Below are positions 4,234-31,870 of a stretch of DNA of 32,029 nucleotides, piece by piece; positions within the stretch are counted from its first letter, which is position 1, and each line of letters opens with the position of its first letter. Source of the DNA: a plasmid. The DNA is taken from sequence record NZ_CP094937.1, one strand, 5' to 3'. The position numbers were made by a program, and so were the translations under genes. The notes under the pieces were generated by a model, which worked only from the letters and a program-made list of their open reading frames with translations, was not told the DNA's origin and searched no databases.

Positions 4234-4423
4234 AAATTTACTGTCTCCTATATTTTTTGTATAACTTTAATATTAAGTTAGCTCTAGTTTTTTGTAAATA
4301 TTTACCAAAAAAGTTTGAATTTTACTTACAATATTAATATATTTACTCAAAGAAGGCCTCCATAATCTATTTAGATATAGAGACCTTCTTTATAACTATT
4401 TTGTTAAAAATCAAATTTACTAT

Positions 4424-4590
4424 CTACAATTACGAATAATAGCCCTAAAATAGCTTTCAGACTTTCTGTACTTACTAGCCAATTCCTTTGTATTAAATCC
4501 ATTAAACGCTTCTATAATTTCTCTATCACGAGATTCTTTATATATCATCTTTTCAGCAGGAAAGTACACATATATCCCTCCAAATTCTTA
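4424..4590 (-). pseudogene. N-terminally truncated copy of the Mor-like regulator gene at 12386..12640 (C-terminal ~48 codons, about 80% nucleotide identity)
   Basis: Direct nucleotide comparison with 12386-12560. An in-frame TAA lies just upstream of the conserved EFGG...YFP block. Confidence 0.6.
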
Positions 4591-4703
4591 TGAGATATAT
4601 GTTAAGTCCACAAAATAACCTCATCTAAAAGTGATAAGGAGATTCTCTCAAATAGTTTATTCAGTAGGACCATTTAAAAGAATATCCGTACTACATAAAA
4701 AAA

Positions 4704-4739
4704 AACCACATATTTATAAAAACCCATTTTTCGATACAC
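4704..4739 (+). repeat. Copy 1 of a 36-bp conserved motif: AACCACATATTTATAAA(G/A)A(G/C)CCATTTTTC(G/A)(A/T)(T/C)(A/G)CAC
   Basis: Matches the copies at 10713, 20702 and 20824, all in the same orientation. Confidence 0.6.
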
Positions 4740-4765
4740 ATACTTTTTAATGCGTATATATGTTA

Positions 4766-4880
4766 TTTGTAATATTAACTCTTTTGAAGTTGTATTTTCT
4801 ATTAACATTTGGAGTAATGTTTTATCACCATGAACTACTTTGTCTAAAATTATATTAATTTTGCTTTTGGGATACATCTA
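4766..4880 (-). pseudogene. Fragment of a parA-like gene (homologous to codons ~56-83 of the ParA at 6008..6814)
   Basis: The translated LDKVVHGDKTLLQMLIENTTSKELILQ matches ParA LYKVVHDDKTLFQMLTENTTAKEVILK, and the nucleotide sequence aligns with 6570-6670. The listed ORF 4674..4877 is a chimera of this fragment plus the 36-bp repeat. Confidence 0.6.
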
Positions 4881-4970
4881 TTAATAAAACTCTATTAATT
4901 TTTTACTAAATTCAATAGCTGTAAATATTGTTATAGTTGTCTTTCAAACCCAACCTTTAGCATTTAAAAT

Positions 4971-5022: not shown

Positions 5023-5076
5023 ATTTTAAATAGCATTATTATAGAATTAATTTTAAATAATAAAGCGGATTTAAAA

Positions 5077-5403
5077 ATGAGAAATATAGACACTAAATTA
5101 TTAAGTGTTTTCTCTATAATGATTTAAAAGGATAATACAATTTAGGCATAAATAGAGGTAAAAGTAGTTCAAACTTCAACTAATGGATATGACTTATTTG
5201 TATATTAACTCTTGAAACATCTCTTTGAACTTCTGATTGACGTTCTAATCAATTTTAAAGTTTAGGAATAACCCTAGTATCAATCCAAGACTCCTTTATA
5301 TCGTTACAATATATTTGTTAGTTAGAATATATTGTAAACTTAAAAATTTGAATACTAGCATAAATTCACTTAGTTCAAATGTATATGAATTTAATAAAAA
5401 TAA
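5077..5403 (+). pseudogene. Decayed second copy of the DUF2922 and yvrJ-like region (a stop after 16 codons, with remnants of both genes and of the inter-gene stem-loop)
   Basis: Nucleotide similarity to 2465-2930: atgagaaatatagacactaaattattaagtgttttctct..., ...agtagttcaaacttcaactaatggatatgactta..., ...tcgttacaatatatttgttagttagaata... Confidence 0.6.
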
Positions 5404-5605
5404 ATATACATCTCTTTATAAAAAATTCCCTCAATTTGTCTATATATTTACATGTATTATTTTTATATACTTAAATCTTTAAAACTCCATCTATAATAAA
5501 GAATTCATAAAAACAATTTTAGATGAATTAAATTCAGCTAAAATTGTTTTTATGAAAATTCTATGATATACTCCCTAAAACTTTATATTTTTTCAATTTT
5601 AAAAT

Positions 5606-6007: not shown

Positions 6008-6814
6008 TTATAAAACCTCCTTAGCCTTTAACTCTTCTATAAATTCATTAAAATCACTTCTTACTTTGTGAGCTTTTTTAGTTTTTCTACAATAGTCTTC
6101 TAAATCCATTTTATTTAAAATAGCATTTCTAACTACTGTTGTTTCACTTATTTTAGCTTGTACCAAATCTTTTTGTATATTTTCAAACTTATCTAGGTAA
6201 CTATTAAATAAATCTCCTGTACTTAACTTTCTAGTTGTATACGAATTTATAACTACAGCTCTTTTAGTTTTTAATTTAATATCTAAAAACTCTAAATCTT
6301 GTTTAAACTTTTGATAGAATAACTCACATCCTCTTATTGATGCAATATCTTGGTACTCAATAGGTGTAATTATAGAGTCTGATATTAACATAAAGTTTCT
6401 AGCTATAAGATCATATGATGGTGATAAATCTACAAATACATAATCATATTTTTCTATATCTTCTATATTATTTTTAAACCATCTCCATACTGCTTTTTCT
6501 CTTCCCATTTGGGTTGATAAATATTCCGATAATACACTTAAACTAATATCACTTGGTATTATATCTATATTTTTAAATTCCTCTACAGGTGATTTTAATA
6601 TTACTTCTTTTGCAGTTGTATTTTCTGTTAACATTTGGAATAGTGTCTTATCATCATGAACCACTTTATATAAAAATTGTGTTAAATTTGCTTGAGTGTC
6701 TGCATCTATTAATAATACTTTTTTTCCTTCTTTACTCAACTTCATAGCTGTAAGTATTGTAAGAGTTGTCTTTCCAACTCCTCCTTTAACATTGAAAAAT
6801 GAACATATTTTCAT
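6008..6814 (-). CDS. parA: ParA/Soj-family partition ATPase (deviant Walker A KGGVGKTT)
   Basis: MKICSFFNVKGGVGKTTLTILTAMKLSKEGKKVLLIDADTQANL is the canonical ParA N-terminus. At 268 aa it fits type Ib. Confidence 0.9.
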   Translation of the reverse strand: MKICSFFNVKGGVGKTTLTILTAMKLSKEGKKVLLIDADTQANLTQFLYKVVHDDKTLFQMLTENTTAKEVILKSPVEEFKNIDIIPSDISLSVLSEYLSTQMGREKAVWRWFKNNIEDIEKYDYVFVDLSPSYDLIARNFMLISDSIITPIEYQDIASIRGCELFYQKFKQDLEFLDIKLKTKRAVVINSYTTRKLSTGDLFNSYLDKFENIQKDLVQAKISETTVVRNAILNKMDLEDYCRKTKKAHKVRSDFNEFIEELKAKEVL

Positions 6815-6960: not shown

Positions 6961-7106
6961 TTTATTCCATGTATATGTAAATATCTTTTTACTTTTTTGC
7001 CATCTGCTCACATATACAAATATGCTTTTTATACTCTAATATAAAAAGTACAATAGATAATATTATTACATAATACCTATTGTACTTTTTCATTAATAGT
7101 ATTGTA

Positions 7107-10100
7107 CTATAACCCCATATAATTATTTTTAGCAATAAACTCATTGCTTCTCTTAACATATTCCTTACACGAAGTTACCTCTTCTAGTATATATTTATCT
7201 TTATTATTTTTTCTATCACACATAAGCATATCAAAAGTTTCAATCATCTTTAAATGTACCCATCTATCCATAGGAAATTCTTCTAAAAACTTATTTAAAT
7301 TCTCCATTGCTATGGTATATTCACCTTTTTCTATATTTACTAATCCAATTCCTTTATATGATCTCTTTTCACCAAACTCTAATCCTTTTTTAAAATATTT
7401 ATTAGCTTCATCATAATTCTCTTGTTCCATAAAAATATCTCCCATAGTAAGATATGAATTAGAATAATGTACAGGAGAATACTCAATAGCTTTTTTAAGG
7501 CATTCATATGCACAATCATATATCCCTTTACCCATATAAACTCTACCAAAGTTATTATATAACTCAGCTGCCAAGTACCCTTTCCACTCCTCTATAGTTT
7601 CTATATTTATTCCAAGTAAATTATTATACTCCTTTAATCTATCATTCATATTGTTTATAGAGTCAAAACTATTCATATAGTCTTCAAGCTTATCCTCTAA
7701 GATTACTTTATAAAGTCTAATGGCCTTATCATACTCTTGAGAATAAAGTGCATTATTCGCATCTGCAACTAATTTATTAACTATATCTTGTATATATTTA
7801 GCATCAAAATCTTCATAGCCACTTTCTAACGCAACAATATCCCCATACTCATTAAACGTATTATTTATTGCATTTCCAAAGTTCAAACTCTCTAAATATT
7901 CATAACTCATCTTAATAGAGTTAACCTTCTTATTAGACTTAAATATATCAACTCTAATTAAATTTATTTCTTCACCTTCTGAATTATGTAGTCTCATAGG
8001 TATATCATTGTAGAATAAGTTCATATGAATAGTAACTTTATATTTTTTTATATTCCCTGACGATTCAATACAATCCCTGAAAGCCTCACTTATATTTGAT
8101 ATAGCATTATGCATATCTACATTCTCCACTGTACATATATGAGTTGTAGAATCATAACCTTGTAATACTATATCTATATTACCTTTAGTATATACAAAAT
8201 GTTTATTGAAAATCTTATTTAAAACAGAGAAAACATCGTTATAACTTAAAGAACCTGTACTATTTTCGATTCTTATACTAGTTTCATTTTGTTTTCCAAG
8301 CAAATTAGTTAATAAATCTCCTCTGATTTCTTCCATTTTTTCTTTACATCTAAGCATTCCTTCTTTATCTTTAGCTTTTTTATAAGCATAATATGCCTTT
8401 CCATAATTTAAGGTTTCTTCTAACCTTTTACCTTCTTTTAGCCAACCTTGAGCAGTTGTAATTTTTAACATTTCTAAAAGTTCTAAGTTTATTTCCTTTA
8501 AATCCTCTACAGATTCTTTTCCAAATAAAGTCTTAACTATATTGGTATCTTTTTCTAAAAATCCAATAATATTTATCCCTCTAGTTATTGCTACGTATAA
8601 AAGATTAATAAAATGTCTTAAATAAGATTGATTAGATCCATTTTTAATTAACTTCCAATAATTTTTATAAGTAGAAATAAAGTTTACACAGAATATATTT
8701 TTATACTCTAAACCCTTTATTTCTTCTATAGTAAACACCCTTCCTTCATTAGCACCTTCAACTACAAACTGATGCTTTTCAACATATGTAGGAACTACAA
8801 TAGCACAATAGTCTCTTTCATTTACTTCCTCTACTAATTTTTTTATATTCTCAATCTTACAAGGTATTATATAAGGTTTCTTTCCCTCTCTTATACACTC
8901 TTCATGTAAGTCGTATTCACTTTTTAATTTTCCAATATTTTCAACTCTTAAATCTATCAACTTATTTATAAAATCAACTACTCCAGAACTGTTTCTATAG
9001 TTTTTATTTATAAATCTTTCTTCATATGAAATTTTATTTTCATAAAAATATGATTTTAAAAGTTTAAAATCGAAGTTGCTATTGTTTATAGTTTGATTTA
9101 TATCTCCTGCAAAAACTATATTTTCCTTTATATTTGATATATTATAAATAAGTTGAAGGTGATTATTTCTGAAGTCTTGTATTTCATCTACAAATACAAA
9201 ATCATATTTAGGTAAATTTATTTTGTTATTATTACTTTCGTTAACAATCATTTCTATTAACCTAATTTCATCTATGTAACCATTCATTTTTATCCAAGTT
9301 TCATACCTATTATAAATAGTTTTGATAAACTGTATTTCCTTATCACTAAAACCATCATGTGTATAACTCTCTTTGTACATATTTATATTATTAATTTCAT
9401 TGTAAATAATAATAGTGCTTAAATTAAAGTCATTAAATCTATAACATGTTTCTAAAAACCATTTTTCAAAATTACTATATTTTATTATCTTTTCTGGATT
9501 TACTCCCAGTTTTTCTGCACAAAATTCATTTATACATAAAAAATCAATACTATTATTTTCATACTTCTTAAATTTATCAAAATAAGTTTTTGCCTTAGAT
9601 TTTAACAATGATGAATAAGTTATATATGCAGATTTAATATTTAGTTCATTATTTAATATTAACTTATAAATACCTATCATAGTTTTTCCAGAACCTGCAC
9701 ATCCTGAAATTATAACTGGCTTTCCTAGTACCTTCAAACAATCAAATTGACTTTCATTTAAGTAATATAAATAATCATCATTATCCTCTTCTAATGCTAT
9801 AGCTATATATTCATCTTCCAGCACTATAGATATTAAATTTTCTAATCCTAGAGATAAATATCTATTTACATACTCTTCAACCTCATTTTTTATATTTTCA
9901 TCAAACTCATCTTCTTCATATGAATTTAAGTCAAGTTCTAGTGTTTTTTCTAAATGTAAATCTAGATTGTTGTTCATTTCTTTACCTTGTACTATTTGAC
10001 TATCATGATTGCAATATTTCAAGAATACGATTTCATTATTATTGGTATCATCAAATGTGAATAGAATTCTATCTCCACTATTTACTCTAAATTTATATAT

Positions 10101-10256
10101 ACTTGTTCCTATTATTTTTCTTATCCATAAACCTTTTGGTATATGCTTTAGACAGTTTGAACTTGTTATTGCATCCGTAAAATAATTTAATTTACTTAGT
10201 ATGAAGTTTTTTCCTTTTATATCTATATCTCTTAAAAATTCTTGTGATATTCTCAT
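7107..10256 (-). CDS. 1049-aa multidomain protein: N-terminal RelE/ParE-toxin-like domain (~90 aa), UvrD-like SF1 helicase core (Walker A GCAGSGKT, motif II DEIQD, motif III GDINQ, motif IV YRNS, motif VI VAITRG), a ~480-aa C-terminal extension ending in TPR-like repeats
   Basis: Helicase motifs read directly from the translation. The N-terminus KGLWIRKIIGTSIYKFRVNSGDRILFTFDD...IVFLKYCNHD resembles the RelE/ParE core (YR.RVGDYRIIY...H). The C-terminal YDCAYECLKKAIEYSP...YDEANKYFKKGLEF segments are TPR-like. Confidence 0.75.
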   Translation of the reverse strand: MRISQEFLRDIDIKGKNFILSKLNYFTDAITSSNCLKHIPKGLWIRKIIGTSIYKFRVNSGDRILFTFDDTNNNEIVFLKYCNHDSQIVQGKEMNNNLDLHLEKTLELDLNSYEEDEFDENIKNEVEEYVNRYLSLGLENLISIVLEDEYIAIALEEDNDDYLYYLNESQFDCLKVLGKPVIISGCAGSGKTMIGIYKLILNNELNIKSAYITYSSLLKSKAKTYFDKFKKYENNSIDFLCINEFCAEKLGVNPEKIIKYSNFEKWFLETCYRFNDFNLSTIIIYNEINNINMYKESYTHDGFSDKEIQFIKTIYNRYETWIKMNGYIDEIRLIEMIVNESNNNKINLPKYDFVFVDEIQDFRNNHLQLIYNISNIKENIVFAGDINQTINNSNFDFKLLKSYFYENKISYEERFINKNYRNSSGVVDFINKLIDLRVENIGKLKSEYDLHEECIREGKKPYIIPCKIENIKKLVEEVNERDYCAIVVPTYVEKHQFVVEGANEGRVFTIEEIKGLEYKNIFCVNFISTYKNYWKLIKNGSNQSYLRHFINLLYVAITRGINIIGFLEKDTNIVKTLFGKESVEDLKEINLELLEMLKITTAQGWLKEGKRLEETLNYGKAYYAYKKAKDKEGMLRCKEKMEEIRGDLLTNLLGKQNETSIRIENSTGSLSYNDVFSVLNKIFNKHFVYTKGNIDIVLQGYDSTTHICTVENVDMHNAISNISEAFRDCIESSGNIKKYKVTIHMNLFYNDIPMRLHNSEGEEINLIRVDIFKSNKKVNSIKMSYEYLESLNFGNAINNTFNEYGDIVALESGYEDFDAKYIQDIVNKLVADANNALYSQEYDKAIRLYKVILEDKLEDYMNSFDSINNMNDRLKEYNNLLGINIETIEEWKGYLAAELYNNFGRVYMGKGIYDCAYECLKKAIEYSPVHYSNSYLTMGDIFMEQENYDEANKYFKKGLEFGEKRSYKGIGLVNIEKGEYTIAMENLNKFLEEFPMDRWVHLKMIETFDMLMCDRKNNKDKYILEEVTSCKEYVKRSNEFIAKNNYMGL

Positions 10257-10346
10257 ATGTTTTACTCCTTAAAAATATTTTAAACTAAATGACAACATTT
10301 AATTTTGAGCTTTTATCTACTTAATCGTTCTTAAATTTTCAACTAC

Positions 10347-10658
10347 CTATTTTAATTTTCGTTCTATTATTTTTCCATTAAATTTAACTTTATTAAATTT
10401 AATAGGCACTCCTTCTTCATCAATTTTAACTAGTATCTCATCATTATCTAATTGATAAAATAAATTTTCTTCATTTAATACAATTTTCATATCTTCAAAA
10501 CTTTCAAACCCTCTAATTGTTGAACTTATAGAATCATTTATATCATATATTTCAATACTATAGTCTTCCTTACCATTTTTTTCTCCATTAGAGTTTAAAC
10601 TGCATATCTTTATATAATCTATATCTAGCTCATAGTCTAGTAAGTTATTATTTTTCAT
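10347..10658 (-). CDS. Small acidic hypothetical protein (103 aa) encoded 90 bp upstream of the toxin-helicase gene, which is the position an antitoxin would occupy
   Basis: AAAGGAGAT RBS. D/E-rich. Co-oriented with the downstream 7107..10256 gene. Confidence 0.55.
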   Translation of the reverse strand: MKNNNLLDYELDIDYIKICSLNSNGEKNGKEDYSIEIYDINDSISSTIRGFESFEDMKIVLNEENLFYQLDNDEILVKIDEEGVPIKFNKVKFNGKIIERKLK

Positions 10659-10712
10659 AGTAATCTCCTTTTACTAATATTATATTTATATATCCTCCGT
10701 ATATAGGGACAG

Positions 10713-10748
10713 AACCACATATTTATAAAGAGCCATTTTTCGATACAC
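10713..10748 (+). repeat. Copy 2 of the 36-bp conserved motif, in the upstream region of the 10347..10658 / 7107..10256 gene pair
   Basis: aaccacatatttataaagagccatttttcgatacac. Confidence 0.6.
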
Positions 10749-11031
10749 TAAGTGATATAAAATATAAATAATTTAAAAATAAATTATTTATATTTTATAT
10801 CAACATAATTATACCATTTTATGGAATTTTAATTTAATTTTAATTTAAATCCACTTAATATTTATATGATTTACTTAAATTCATTTAGGATAATCTGTGT
10901 TTTTCTGCAAAATAGCACCAATTTTATTGAAGTTTAGTAATTCCAATGAATATATATTAACGTTGATATATTAAGAAATAAGATTTAATATTATATTTAG
11001 ATAAATAAGATTTTTAAAGGAGGAAAATAAT

Positions 11032-12302: not shown

Positions 12303-12385
12303 ATTTTAATTTTATTATTTAGCTTATTAACTTAACTCTATTAAATCAAAAAAATCTATTTATTATTTTATTAATATCTAAAGAT

Positions 12386-12640
12386 TTATTTATTTTTACG
12401 AATAATAGCTCTAATATAGCTTTCAGACATCCTGTATTTACTAGCTAATTCCTTTACATTAAATCCATTAAACTCCTCTATAATTGCTCTATCACGAGCT
12501 TCTTTATATATCATCTTTTCAGTAGGAAAGTACACAGATGTCCCTCCAAATTCTTCAAATAGCACCTTGGTTATATCTATTCCAAGTCTTTCAGCTATAT
12601 TTTCAAATTGTGGAGGTAAATCACTCATTTTTAAATCCAT
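12386..12640 (-). CDS. Small DNA-binding regulator, Mor-like or sigma-70 region-4-like HTH (motif FGGTSVYFP, HTH at the C-terminus)
   Basis: AGGAGGA RBS. 84 aa with ...LFEEFGGTSVYFP...ELASKYRMSESYIRAIIRK, which resembles the Mor/C family of phage late activators. Confidence 0.5.
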   Translation of the reverse strand: MDLKMSDLPPQFENIAERLGIDITKVLFEEFGGTSVYFPTEKMIYKEARDRAIIEEFNGFNVKELASKYRMSESYIRAIIRKNK

Positions 12641-14241: not shown

Positions 14242-14294
14242 GGGGGGAGGACGACATACGTGTAAAAATCGGCCACTTAATTTTGAAACCATTG
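14242..14294 (+). repeat. Tn3-family left terminal inverted repeat (53 bp; similarity continues, degenerate, to about 14315)
   Basis: ggggggaggacgacatacgtgtaaaaatcggccacttaattttgaaaccattg. Confidence 0.9.
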
Positions 14295-14355
14295 AAGTGA
14301 CCGATTTACATAGATTTTTATATATTATGTACTAAATTCTTATAAATAGCTATAT

Positions 14356-14862
14356 CTAAAGTTTAATTTCAAATTGATTATACAAATTACCATTTTTTTC
14401 ATGACTTTTAAAGAATACTCCATTATTATTTAAAATAACTTTTTCAGAGCGTATATTAGCTTTAGCACAATTTAATATAACTTTATCAAGCCCAATTTCT
14501 TTTGCATGCGGTAAGGCTAATTCTAGTATTTTATTTCCATATCCATTACCTCTATGTCTTGGAGCAATATCATACCCTATATGACCATCAAAAGGAACAT
14601 TCCCATGTCTAATTCTAATAGAGCCTAATACTTGTTCTTTATCATTTACCAACCAGAAACTAGAACAAGGAACATATCCTTCAGGAAGGTCAACACCTTT
14701 AGCATTATTGTTAAGTTTACTTACATATTGTTTAAAATCTTTATAGGCATCTCTATAAACATACATGTACTCTGTATCCCCTGATACCTTGTAGTCATTA
14801 ATATATTCTAAAAAGCTATTTTCATATTTTATACTTGGTATTTCCAATCTAATATTCTCCAT
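14356..14862 (-). CDS. GNAT-family N-acetyltransferase (passenger gene inside the transposon)
   Basis: Motif RHRGNGYGNKILELAL (acetyl-CoA-binding Q/RxxGxG/A). 168 aa. Confidence 0.75.
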   Translation of the reverse strand: MENIRLEIPSIKYENSFLEYINDYKVSGDTEYMYVYRDAYKDFKQYVSKLNNNAKGVDLPEGYVPCSSFWLVNDKEQVLGSIRIRHGNVPFDGHIGYDIAPRHRGNGYGNKILELALPHAKEIGLDKVILNCAKANIRSEKVILNNNGVFFKSHEKNGNLYNQFEIKL

Positions 14863-14995
14863 ATAAATTTCCCCCTTTATTTACTCTTGACCATAAAAAC
14901 TTAATATTTAGAATTTTTATATTATTATAGCATTAAACTCTAATACTTTTAACTATTCTCTATAAAATGGTTAATGATTTATAAATAAAATACAT

Positions 14996-15010
14996 TATGA
15001 TATAATCATA
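14996..15010. promoter_or_regulatory. Candidate res subsite I (palindrome TATGAT-ATA-ATCATA) in the intergenic region upstream of tnpR
   Basis: Read directly. In Tn3-family elements the res site lies upstream of tnpR. Tentative. Confidence 0.3.
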
Positions 15011-15120
15011 ACTTACAAGTTTTGATTATAAAAAGTGCTCATTGAAAAATCAATACTTTGAGCATGGTCATAACTAGTAATCATAAATGACTATAAAATT
15101 TATACATCAAGGAGCAAAAT

Positions 15121-15699
15121 ATGATTTACGGATATGCAAGAGTTAGTACTAAATCTCAAGAAGATAACACTAGTTTAGAAAATCAAATAAAAATATTGAA
15201 AGAAAATAACTGCAATGAAATTTTTAAGGAAGTACATACTGGAGCTACAATGGAAAGACCTAAATTTATAGAACTAGAGAGAAAATTATGCTCAGGCGAT
15301 ACTTTAGTTATCACTAAACTGGATAGGTTTACAAGAAGCACAGAAAAAGGAATTAGCAAGATAAAAGAATTAGCCGAAAGAGGTATCAAAGTAAATATCT
15401 TAAATATGGGTGTTGTAGACTTGTCTAATGCCATGGGAAAGATGATGTTTACTATATTATGTGCGTTCTCTGAGTATGAAAAAGACTGTATAGTTGAGAG
15501 AATGAAAGAGGGCAAAGCAATTGCAAAACAAAATCCTAATTTTAGAGAAGGCCGAAAAAAAGTACATAAAGATGAGAAAGTAAAACATGCTCTAGATTTA
15601 TTAAAAACTAATACCTATAAACAAGTTGAATCTATGACAGGCATAAGCGTAGCTACATTAGTTAGAGCAAAGCGTAAAGAAAAAGAGAAAAATTTATAA
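15121..15699 (+). CDS. tnpR: Serine recombinase, the transposon resolvase TnpR (catalytic Ser in [11 protein letters not shown]-terminal HTH)
   Basis: [22 protein letters not shown]... is the canonical resolvase/invertase N-terminus. AAGGAG RBS. Confidence 0.9.
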
Positions 15700-15724
15700 T
15701 TTATTTTAAGAAGGACTGACATGA

Positions 15725-28074: not shown

Positions 28075-29166
28075 CTACCAAAACACGTCCATTTCGTTCT
28101 TATGAGCTACATCTTCTTTTTCTTCTAACTTATATTCAACTATTTTATTATCCAAACAACCTTTGAAAAACTTGTATGAACTAACTTTAATAATTTCTAC
28201 ATCATCTCTCTCCAGAGTTATAGATACTGCATCATCAAAAGCTTTTTCCATGTATTCGTTTTTAAAATCAATATTTCTAAAATCCTTCTTAAAACTTCTT
28301 AAAGTCCCCTTAGTAAATATATCTTCATCTGGAACTAAAAACTCAAATTCACTAATTTTATCATTATCTACATTGTCACTAGAAATATCATAGTTTGATT
28401 TAAATGTTCTCTCTTCTTTATTATCAAAAATAGAATTATCATTAGTAAAATACTTTCTCTTGTCCAAATCTTTAACGTAAAAGTCAATAGAATCAACTTT
28501 TCTACCAACTTTATTTTCCTTAAAATCTATCTCAAAATATCCCGTTTCATTAAGTTCTTTTATAGCAGGAAGAATAACTCTTCTTTTAAAATTTCCGTAT
28601 TCAGGATAACTTTCATCTAATTGAAGATACATTTTTAAATCCTCTAAACTATAATTTATTACTGATTTTGTTCCACTCCAAAGTCTAAGAAGATCATATA
28701 ATCTTTGCGAATAATAATTTTTCATACTAAATAATGCTGCTAAATTAGCTGGAGTGTATCCTGTTTGCAAGTAATTATTTAATAAATCATAAATTTTTTC
28801 AGATGCTTCAATTTTAAAAATTTTCCTCTCATCATCATATGTAAAACCATTTAAAAATCCATACTCTCCCCAAATAATTCCTTTTTTATTTTCTTTTTCT
28901 TCCATAAAAAATATACTTTTCTTTCTTAATGAACTTAAAGATTTAGAAATATTCTTTATCGTCTTATCTTTTGCATGTTTAATTATTTGCTTAAATTCAT
29001 CATGTGATATCTCACAACTTAAAACTCCGTTACTTTCCTTTTGAAGTTTATACATCATAAGTAAAAAAATTCTATTTTCAACTAGTGTTAAACTATATTT
29101 GGCTTGAATAAGTAAATTGTTTTTCATCAATATTTTAGGATTTTGAATATCTCTATAATCATTCAT
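28075..29166 (-). CDS. rep: Rep_3-family theta-replication initiator
   Basis: N-terminus LLIQAKYSLTLVENRIFLLMMYKL matches the Rep_3 signature, and iterons lie immediately upstream. Confidence 0.75.
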   Translation of the reverse strand: MNDYRDIQNPKILMKNNLLIQAKYSLTLVENRIFLLMMYKLQKESNGVLSCEISHDEFKQIIKHAKDKTIKNISKSLSSLRKKSIFFMEEKENKKGIIWGEYGFLNGFTYDDERKIFKIEASEKIYDLLNNYLQTGYTPANLAALFSMKNYYSQRLYDLLRLWSGTKSVINYSLEDLKMYLQLDESYPEYGNFKRRVILPAIKELNETGYFEIDFKENKVGRKVDSIDFYVKDLDKRKYFTNDNSIFDNKEERTFKSNYDISSDNVDNDKISEFEFLVPDEDIFTKGTLRSFKKDFRNIDFKNEYMEKAFDDAVSITLERDDVEIIKVSSYKFFKGCLDNKIVEYKLEEKEDVAHKNEMDVFW

Positions 29167-29220: not shown

Positions 29221-29336
29221 TGTCAACTTAAATTAATTGACATTTTTATCAATTCCAAAGTGACATATTAAAATTCCAATCTGACATTTTAAAGTTCCAA
29301 AGTGACATATTAAAATTCCAATCTGACATTTTTACT
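29221..29336. repeat. Replication origin: palindrome AATGTCAA...TTGACATT followed by four 21-bp iterons (TTCCAAAGTGACATATTAAAA / TTCCAATCTGACATTTTAAAG, repeated as a 42-bp tandem duplication)
   Basis: Read directly; it lies directly upstream of the Rep_3 gene. Confidence 0.8.
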
Positions 29337-31089: not shown

Positions 31090-31870
31090 TCTACATTTAA
31101 ATATTATACGGTCAATCTCATGGGTCAATTCTGATCTCACAGCTTGAAGTAAAAAACACTTCAAACTGTAATGCCAGAAATACAAATATCTATATTTTAT
31201 TTTCCAACTAGATACTAATAATTTAATTTCTCTAGGCTTAATTTAACTAACTTTTTAATATTACTTTTTGTAATATTTTCGTATTACTACTTGTAATATA
31301 TGATATTACTTTTATATTACTGTATATGTACCTATTGATATAACTTCATCTTATCATTTTTATGGAGTTTGGCTTTCGCCACCGCGCTTTACGCTACAAT
31401 CTTTTTAGTAAAAAACACTAAAAAGGATTTTCACTTCAATCTCTAACTCAAAATCATCGTTCCATCACAATTTATATCTCTTTTAAAATTATATTAGTTT
31501 TAAATTTTTTACTTGTATATGACCTTACGGTCGTGCCCCTCTGACAAATCCTTAAAAGCACTTACACATCTCCGCCGATAACATATTTCACATACATCAT
31601 ATTACATATCATGTATTTTCATATCTTATAGCTCCATGTGTTCGTAACTTTTTAAGGATAGCCATTTGAGCGACTACGTCTGCGAACCACTTCACTCCCA
31701 TACGCCCAATGCCCTAACCTAATATTTGTATTACATACTTCCAATGAAACTTATACGACCTTCACATTTTGTATAACCAGCTAAATATGTTAATTTAAAT
31801 TTCTATATTTAATAATACTACTAGTAAAATCAACTTGGTTACGGTATGAAACTACTTTCGTGGTATCACG

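Follow-up and report, generated by a model that had tools for sequence, protein, structure and literature searches.

A plasmid gene joining a RelE-like domain, a UvrD/PcrA-type helicase and a TPR array: a candidate self-contained conflict protein

A gene that couples a toxin-like domain to a helicase raises the question of whether it forms half of a toxin-antitoxin pair, serves the replicon that carries it, or acts by itself in conflicts with foreign genetic elements. We address this question for a large open reading frame (ORF) on the plasmid of sequence record NZ_CP094937.1, of which a stretch of 32,029 nucleotides, hereafter the window, was analysed. The ORF (7107..10256, minus strand) starts with ATG, is preceded by the ribosome-binding site AAGGAG 8 nt upstream and encodes 1049 residues. 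From the N- to the C-terminus these comprise a RelE/YoeB/YafQ-like domain, an acidic linker, a helicase core, two further domains and an array of tetratricopeptide repeats (TPR). A small ORF for an acidic protein of 103 residues (10347..10658, minus strand), with its own ribosome-binding site AAAGGAGA, ends exactly 90 bp upstream. Both genes lie on the minus strand, a point on which a preliminary description of this DNA, made from its letters, has to be corrected. We propose here that the large protein is a self-contained, helicase-based sensor-effector protein for conflict or defence and a member of a rare family of Bacillota and Fusobacteriota. We hold this proposal at about even confidence, and the RNase activity, the trigger, the target and the defence phenotype that it entails are predictions from sequences and structure models.

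The N-terminal domain (residues 1-98; 9963..10256, minus strand) is basic, with an isoelectric point (pI) of 9.2. Modelled by AlphaFold2 from 37 family sequences (predicted local distance difference test, pLDDT, 86.8), its elements run in the order beta-alpha-alpha-beta-beta-beta-alpha, and this predicted order is that of RelE. Comparison of the model with the PDB by Foldseek returned RelE, YafQ, YoeB, HigB, HP0892/HP0894 and YoeB/ParE-type toxins among the top 25 matches, the sole exception being the insecticidal toxin Txp40 (7xbj_A) at rank 19 with a short match of 40 columns. The ranks down to 50 are mostly RelE/ParE-superfamily toxins as well, the rest being a second Txp40 chain and Cami1 (8phj_X). 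Top matches reach a probability of ~1.0 and a template-modelling score of ~0.6, with a best E-value of 1.4e-3. First stands RelE3 of M. jannaschii (3BPQ), and the RNase-type toxins RelE, YafQ and YoeB precede ParE, which comes far lower, with ParE2 last. Sequence profiles gave fainter signals. An alignment of the N-domain profile with a small YoeB alignment by hhalign scored a probability of 82% and an E-value of 1e-5, and hhalign against single RelE, YoeB and YafQ sequences was uninformative. A search of the profile against PDB sequences returned noise only, plus YoeB at E 0.71. Scans of the N-domain of the window protein with Pfam, NCBIfam and PADLOC gave no match, and a few other family members match curated toxin models below threshold (YoeB_toxin 0.037, Gp49 0.023, HigB-like 0.14).

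Conservation within the family is concentrated in a few polar positions. Among 197 unique family N-domains, R63 is kept in 194, H84 in 193 and D85 in 187; K55, R57 and D62 are kept in 174-186 of them, and Q87 is also near-invariant. By strand register, R63 and H84 fall at the positions of YoeB R65 and H83, which were checked against PDB entry 2A6Q. In the numbering of RelE, the same register would place K55, R57, R63 and H84 at K52, K54, R61 and R81. The near-invariance of R63, H84 and D85 points to a functional N-domain, with a putative catalytic role for R63 and H84. The domain thus resembles the free toxins RelE, YoeB, YafQ and HigB in its predicted fold, its size of ~90 residues, its basic character and its arginine and histidine, which are conserved and, by strand register, fall at catalytic positions of these RNases. 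It differs from them in that it is not free-standing, has no conserved antitoxin gene and matches no curated toxin model above threshold.

Directly behind the basic domain follows an acidic linker (residues 99-165; 9762..9962, minus strand) with a pI of 4.05 and 22 aspartates and glutamates versus 3 lysines and arginines. Its consensus in an alignment of 30 sequences (A3) contains the motifs Y-E-E-D-E-x-D and EDEYI. The succession of a basic N-domain and an acidic segment was found in all homologues examined, including the ArmD protein discussed below, and the linker may act as a same-chain inhibitor of the N-domain.

The helicase core (residues 166-575; 8532..9761, minus strand) contains GCAGSGKT at residues 185-192, DEIQD at 357-361, GDINQ at 384-388, YRNS at 420-423 and VAITRG at 555-560. 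Pfam models score above their cutoffs (UvrD-helicase, PF00580, 29.7 bits versus 23; AAA_19, 27.4 versus 25.1), and UvrD_C_2 was also matched. Q170, G185, A187, G188, G190, K191, D357, E358, Q360, D385, Q388, R421 and R559 are invariant in alignment A3. Hence the Q motif, Walker A (K191), Walker B (D357/E358), motifs III and IV and the arginine of motif VI (R559) are intact. Searched against the PDB, the 30-sequence family profile finds PcrA at 2e-27, UvrD at 8e-16 and GajB at 7e-11, and also Rep, HelD and AddA. The core can be assigned to superfamily 1A (SF1A), UvrD/PcrA type, and looks catalytically competent. An assignment to HelD/helicase IV was considered and rejected, given that the match is confined to the helicase core, the NCBIfam score is 21.9 bits versus a cutoff of 543 and the N-terminal domain is different.

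Two domains lie between the helicase and the tail. The first consists of TPR-like helical hairpins (residues 576-657; 8286..8531, minus strand), in which W605, E608, L612, A621 and C637 are invariant or nearly so. The second is an alpha/beta domain (residues 658-790; 7887..8285, minus strand) of the order beta-alpha-beta-beta-alpha-beta plus extra strands. In a structure model of residues 575-835 (pLDDT 77.7, ~90 in the core), the Foldseek matches of this domain, which spans 658-786 in the model, are almost all little-finger DNA-binding domains of Y-family polymerases, a weak similarity (E ~1e-3, probability ~1), and we hypothesize that this little-finger-like domain binds nucleic acid.

The C-terminal TPR array (residues 831-1049 and the stop codon; 7107..7766, minus strand) is recognized by Pfam at residues 896-996 (TPR_2, 37.9 bits versus a cutoff of 27; TPR_8, 31.4 versus 25.7), and consensus-TPR structures in the PDB match the tail down to an E-value of 1e-31. 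It is hypervariable. Between the window gene and a close plasmid variant (L025:6403-9552 versus window 7107-10256), 94-97% of positions outside the tail are identical, and 32% of residues differ in the TPR tail only. Over the 219 codons of the tail we count 70 non-synonymous and 36 synonymous changes, and in the other defined domains ~0-6% of codons have a non-synonymous change. A second variant (L024) has 15 non-synonymous versus 6 synonymous changes in the tail. Such divergence is what one would expect of a recognition module that undergoes exchange or diversification.

Much of this architecture had been anticipated in the preliminary description. The SF1 motifs that it had listed between residues ~185 and ~560 are all found at those positions, with the UvrD-helicase model of Pfam above its cutoff. 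The RelE/ParE likeness that it had seen in the first ~90 residues is confirmed at the level of the predicted fold by AlphaFold2 and Foldseek, and the TPR tail that it had described is recognized by two Pfam models above threshold. It had not mentioned the two domains between helicase and tail, the conserved acidic linker or the role of the TPR module as a conserved partner, to which we turn now.

Members of the family are rare and come mostly from Bacillota and Fusobacteriota. Searched against 1.84 billion representative proteins, the N-domain profile retrieved only 241 clusters at E-values up to 1e-3, and 16 loci emerged when 185,579 species genomes were scanned with a pattern. Almost every full-length member has the domain at its N-terminus and Walker A 175-205 residues into the protein. 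The position of the repeat module varies. TPR are C-terminal in the window protein and in members from C. difficile and Paenibacillus, and N-terminal in one member (P0191); Fusobacterium P0075 and two others (P0120, P0203) carry C-terminal ankyrin repeats instead. In Bacillus, on a B. thuringiensis plasmid, in Neobacillus, in Anaerobacillus and in two Paenibacillus species, a separate TPR gene abuts or overlaps the helicase start on its upstream side. The 282-residue TPR protein of Bacillus aligns to residues ~902-1037 of the window protein (28% identity, E 1e-4 in tblastn). Because this protein is homologous to the tail of the window protein, fusion and fission of the TPR module have occurred in the family. 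By comparison of loci, it is the TPR module rather than the small ORF that evolution has conserved as a partner.

The family also reaches a C. difficile contig and plasmids of the Bacillus cereus group. Ten members of ~330 residues (P0142, P0147, P0153-P0157, P0163, P0168 and P0169) combine the N-domain with a region that weakly resembles the part behind the helicase, and lack the helicase itself. A more distant relative, a 970-residue UvrD-helicase domain-containing protein, is encoded on the Shigella flexneri virulence plasmid NZ_MW396862 (L020:4518-7430). Its N-terminus has a motif related to the RelE-like domain (YRARLSIRDRLLFSL...RNH) ahead of the UvrD core. This protein occurs on more than 100 Shigella and E. 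coli plasmids, where it adjoins virK, capU and lpxM, with no ARMADA genes nearby.

How does this protein compare with systems already described? ARMADA type II from E. coli NCTC 12900 and ATCC 8739 has been validated by experiment as a system of defence (Bell et al., bioRxiv 2025; PMC12458937). Its strict operon encodes ArmA (BrxHII-like), ArmB (a PglX-like methyltransferase), ArmC (a YprA-like helicase) and ArmD, and all four genes as well as the Walker A lysine of ArmD are required for protection (PMC12458937). The authors term the ArmD helicase GajB-like, report RelE3 (3BPQ, E 0.0085) as the HHpred match of its N-domain and find the system in Pseudomonadota and Actinomycetota (PMC12458937). 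We located armD in E. coli ATCC 8739 by means of a published mutagenesis primer; it follows the genes for a PglX-like methyltransferase and a YprA-like helicase. Like the window protein, ArmD fuses a RelE-like N-domain to a UvrD-family helicase, has 3BPQ as its best PDB match, and shows the pattern of an xRhxxxxR-hydrophobic strand followed by h-h-h-x-(K/N)-H-D, with a basic N-domain and an acidic stretch behind it. It is shorter, however (704 residues), and lacks both the little-finger-like domain and the TPR tail. Its identity to the window protein is 23%, in the helicase only (E 2e-4), and the N-domain hidden Markov model of the window family is not significant on ArmD. Moreover, armD is the fourth gene of an operon, whereas no ArmA-C genes are found in the window or beside close homologues. 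For these reasons the identification of the window protein as ArmD was rejected. Since ArmD has been published, a RelE-like/UvrD fusion is already known as a kind of protein, and the statement of the preliminary description that such an architecture has no place in any named family is out of date; besides ArmD, our literature search found no description of such RelE-helicase fusions.

Other comparisons concern parts of the architecture. With GajB, the NERD+UvrD candidates and the Nhi-type nuclease-helicases the protein has in common an SF1A core of the UvrD/PcrA type that is joined to a nuclease function, here a predicted one. GajB, however, has GajA as partner nuclease, and no GajA is encoded in the window; the window family is closer to PcrA than to GajB, and the putative effector has a RelE rather than a DNase fold. 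A PADLOC search, which the preliminary description had proposed as a check, returned matches to GajB that were partial and weak (best E 7.9e-11, residues 313-575) and no partner genes, and ten other ORFs of the window likewise gave no partner genes in PADLOC. Shango (SngABC) differs in that neither a TerB-domain SngA nor a SngB ATPase gene is present in the window. Cami1 (CARF-RelE of type III CRISPR, PDB 8PHJ) is comparable as a RelE-fold domain inside a larger sensor without a separate antitoxin, and it cleaves ribosome-bound mRNA once its sensor domain is activated. Its CARF sensor binds cyclic oligoadenylate, in contrast to the helicase and TPR of the window protein, and there is no sequence kinship beyond the fold. 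STAND/Avs sensors, in which the effector is N-terminal, the NTPase central and the repeat array (TPR or ankyrin) variable, offer an analogy of layout only; the NTPase of the window protein is an SF1 helicase and not a STAND ATPase. The window protein thus appears to be a separate, autonomous variant with added modules that belongs to neither ArmD, Gabija nor Shango.

The genomic contexts of relatives are consistent with a role in conflict. One family gene lies on a Rep3 plasmid near BrxL and the PADLOC candidate PDC-M26A/B (L001), and another in an island with an HKD+Snf2 protein (L022). A metagenome contig (L021:3135-11000) carries a Shango-like operon in which the gene for an SngA-like TerB_C protein comes first, behind a BrxL-like gene, and SngB (E 1e-158) second; its third gene encodes a distant family member, the RelE-like/UvrD helicase P0085, which has no match to the SngC models of PADLOC at E <= 1e-5. 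At the locus that is 74% identical to the window protein (L006), a NERD+UvrD candidate gene stands immediately downstream of the RelE-helicase-TPR gene. These surroundings, in mobile elements and defence islands, make a defence or conflict role plausible, and to this extent the defence role put forward in the preliminary description holds.

The NERD+UvrD gene itself (L006:4012-5949, with a copy at L007:3705-5642) encodes a UvrD-type protein of 645 residues (PADLOC NERD+UvrD C3a187, E 3e-38). At L006 it starts 10 nt after the RelE-helicase-TPR gene and precedes ParA; it has no counterpart in the window. A gene for 240 residues found near close homologues (L001, L004) likewise has no counterpart beside the window gene.

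A mechanism can be sketched for such a self-contained protein. While the protein is at rest, the acidic linker might mask the basic nuclease-like domain of the same chain, and such masking would explain the absence of a conserved separate antitoxin. The helicase and the little-finger-like domain would engage foreign or aberrant nucleic acid in an ATP-dependent manner, and the TPR array, or the ankyrin repeats in other members, might recognize a variable protein or ligand or else keep the whole protein switched off. Activation would free the RelE-like domain for cleavage of RNA, most likely ribosome-bound mRNA as in Cami1, and translation in the invaded cell would stop.

Several observations weigh against this proposal. 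The RelE fold is that of a predicted structure with Foldseek E-values of ~1e-3, and the sequence profiles stay below threshold. The placement of R63 and H84 at catalytic positions follows strand register and not superposition; we claim no residue-exact catalytic mapping, because the strand register in hhalign differs from the structural one. ARMADA protects without killing the host, and the RelE-like domain of ArmD was left unmutated in that study (PMC12458937). Members from Bacillus, Fusobacterium and Paenibacillus sit among ordinary chromosomal genes without recognizable defence neighbours. Finally, partition genes adjoin the family gene in two plasmid lineages, that of the window and that of the 74% identical locus, with parA ~6 kb away in a third locus (L019), and this proximity would also fit a role in plasmid biology.

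Such a role is the first alternative to be weighed. The helicase could act on behalf of the mobile element or plasmid that bears it, be it in replication, partition, transfer or plasmid competition, the RelE-like domain being a dead binding module and the TPR binding plasmid or host proteins. In the window, the gene is directly upstream of parA (6008-6814) and a small parB-like gene that follows it, on a plasmid with a Rep3-type initiator gene (28075-29166, Pfam-level annotation). Tandem 21-nt repeats (TTCCAAAGTGACATATTAAAA-like, 29253-29332) just upstream of the Rep3 gene are probably plasmid iterons. The family gene is close to ParA and Rep3 in L006 and L001 too, and it also occurs on B. thuringiensis and B. 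cereus plasmids. PcrA, to which the helicase core is most similar, is used by plasmids for their replication, and other plasmid operons have the same upstream motif as the window gene. This motif, which the preliminary description had noted as a shared 36-bp element, indeed exists in four copies of ~36-49 nt (AACCACATATTTATAAAGAGCCATTTTTC..., repeat family D4) at 4700-4748, 10709-10757, 20698-20746 and 20820-20868 on the minus strand. All four have the same orientation and read toward minus-strand genes. Three precede such genes in intergenic DNA; the fourth, at 20820-20868, overlaps a 429-residue ORF (20860-22149) at its 3' end. The small ORF follows ~50-100 nt behind the copy at 10709-10757, and the motif is probably a plasmid promoter or operator element. 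Against a plasmid function, chromosomal copies have no plasmid genes nearby, and members are found inside ARMADA-type and Shango-like defence operons. The polar residues at the RelE-type catalytic positions are near-invariant, and the sporadic, rare distribution and the hypervariable TPR tail are typical of conflict genes. We consider a plasmid function unlikely on this evidence.

The preliminary description had read the locus as a two-gene immunity module of the toxin-antitoxin type, in which the 103-residue acidic protein would neutralize the RelE-like domain. The small ORF is there as described: ORF calls place it co-oriented and 90 bp upstream of the large one, and its product is acidic, with a pI of 4.5 and 22 aspartates and glutamates versus 14 lysines and arginines. 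It has its own ribosome-binding site, and a scan of the window found no terminator-like site between the two ORFs. Directly 3' of the stop codon of the large ORF lies a hairpin (7031..7102, minus strand; inverted repeat I23) with an RNA folding energy of -27.5 kcal/mol (z = -6.5; none of 200 shuffles was as stable). A consensus terminator scan missed it because its stem is AT-rich; it is probably the transcription terminator that closes a two-gene transcript. As this strong hairpin stands only behind the large ORF and no terminator separates the genes, both are probably co-transcribed, and parA, downstream of the large ORF, has a near-consensus promoter of its own. The small ORF is also kept in all related P. 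bifermentans-type plasmid loci. Between plasmid variants it shows 4 synonymous and 3 non-synonymous differences, and given these counts and the ribosome-binding site it may be a real gene.

Its distribution speaks against an antitoxin nonetheless. Pfam, PADLOC and NCBIfam gave no match for the small ORF, and no structure family was matched either. A search of 5.8 billion proteins yielded one cluster of homologues, which is 97% identical and comes from Paraclostridium bifermentans. The small ORF occurs only beside helicase alleles that are at least 94% identical, on P. bifermentans-type plasmids. The loci of the 74%, 61% and 51% identical homologues lack it upstream of the helicase gene, and none of the 35 other related loci examined has it. 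In its place, a serine recombinase gene stands upstream of the 74% homologue, an integrase gene and a 1-kb gap upstream of the 61% homologue, and a TPR gene or an unrelated gene at the remaining loci. Because the small ORF is an orphan that is absent from other related loci, the two-gene module is unsupported, no cognate antitoxin gene being conserved across homologues; in addition, the same-chain acidic segment present in every family member examined could do the neutralizing. The small ORF would accordingly be a lineage-specific passenger or a local accessory rather than a general component or a general neutralizer, and we regard the reading as a toxin-antitoxin pair as improbable.

Equally little credence goes to the view that the gene is an orphaned component of Gabija, ARMADA type II or Shango that has lost its partners and does not function alone: the weak and partial GajB matches in PADLOC (best E 8e-11) and the action of distant relatives within multi-gene systems would fit it, but PADLOC and Pfam find no GajA, ArmA-C or SngA/B-like gene in the window, the whole Bacillota clade consistently goes without such partners, the ORF is intact with all motifs invariant, and the further domains that the clade has acquired speak for autonomy.

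The self-contained conflict protein remains the reading that we prefer, and the replicon around it deserves a short description. Identical or near-identical copies of both genes occur in several metagenome assemblies and one Paraclostridium bifermentans assembly, and a near-identity DNA search with the 3.5-kb region gave no match in plasmid or phage collections. Since tblastn of the large protein against phages found nothing, there is no evidence of a phage-borne origin. An Rfam scan detected no RNA element in or near the locus. The window has a G+C content of ~25% and encodes, among others, a Tn3-family transposon, a Mor-family regulator and a cell-wall amidase. The transposon (14242-18758) is bounded by 78-nt inverted repeats that are 91% complementary and carries a GNAT acetyltransferase, a resolvase with a helix-turn-helix of the Cry35Ab1 type and a transposase of 984 residues; a third copy of its repeat end lies at 23119-23152. 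Three pairs of segments are duplicated at 73-89% identity (2433-2930 versus 5045-5406, 4400-4589 versus 12366-12555, 4767-4934 versus 6593-6763). One duplication repeats part of the Mor-family gene, and 4767-4934 repeats part of parA, which suggests a decayed second partition module. A gene at 24131-25267 (minus strand), built of 102-nt tandem DNA repeats, encodes a protein of 378 residues that consists almost wholly of WG-containing beta repeats (Pfam WG_beta_rep, E 1e-119). Away from the locus, at 31376-31452 (minus strand), Rfam matches a Flavo-1 RNA (58.7 bits versus a gathering score of 42, E 1.6e-10). This RNA family was described from Bacteroidota and is hence unexpected on a clostridial plasmid.

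Going beyond the proposal made here, the family could represent a new class of single-chain immune sensors, in which an SF1 helicase takes the place of the STAND ATPase. Swappable TPR or ankyrin modules would, with the helicase and a little-finger-like nucleic-acid module, sense an invader and thereby unleash a ribosome-targeting RelE RNase that an antitoxin-like acidic segment of the same chain otherwise silences. We put this forward tentatively, as a possibility that we would not yet favour. If it were true, the same RelE-helicase cassette would be an effector arm recruited by ARMADA type II and by some Shango-like operons. The RelE-like/UvrD fusion is an essential and mechanistically unexplained part of ARMADA type II, and its apparently stand-alone version offers a simpler system in which to study the role of the RelE-like domain and its control by the helicase. 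One may also ask what keeps a domain of toxin fold from doing harm when no separate antitoxin is conserved, and here the acidic linker provides a testable hypothesis. With relatives on a C. difficile contig, on B. cereus-group plasmids and on a Shigella virulence plasmid, the family extends to medically relevant replicons, and its predicted function may be of wider bearing.

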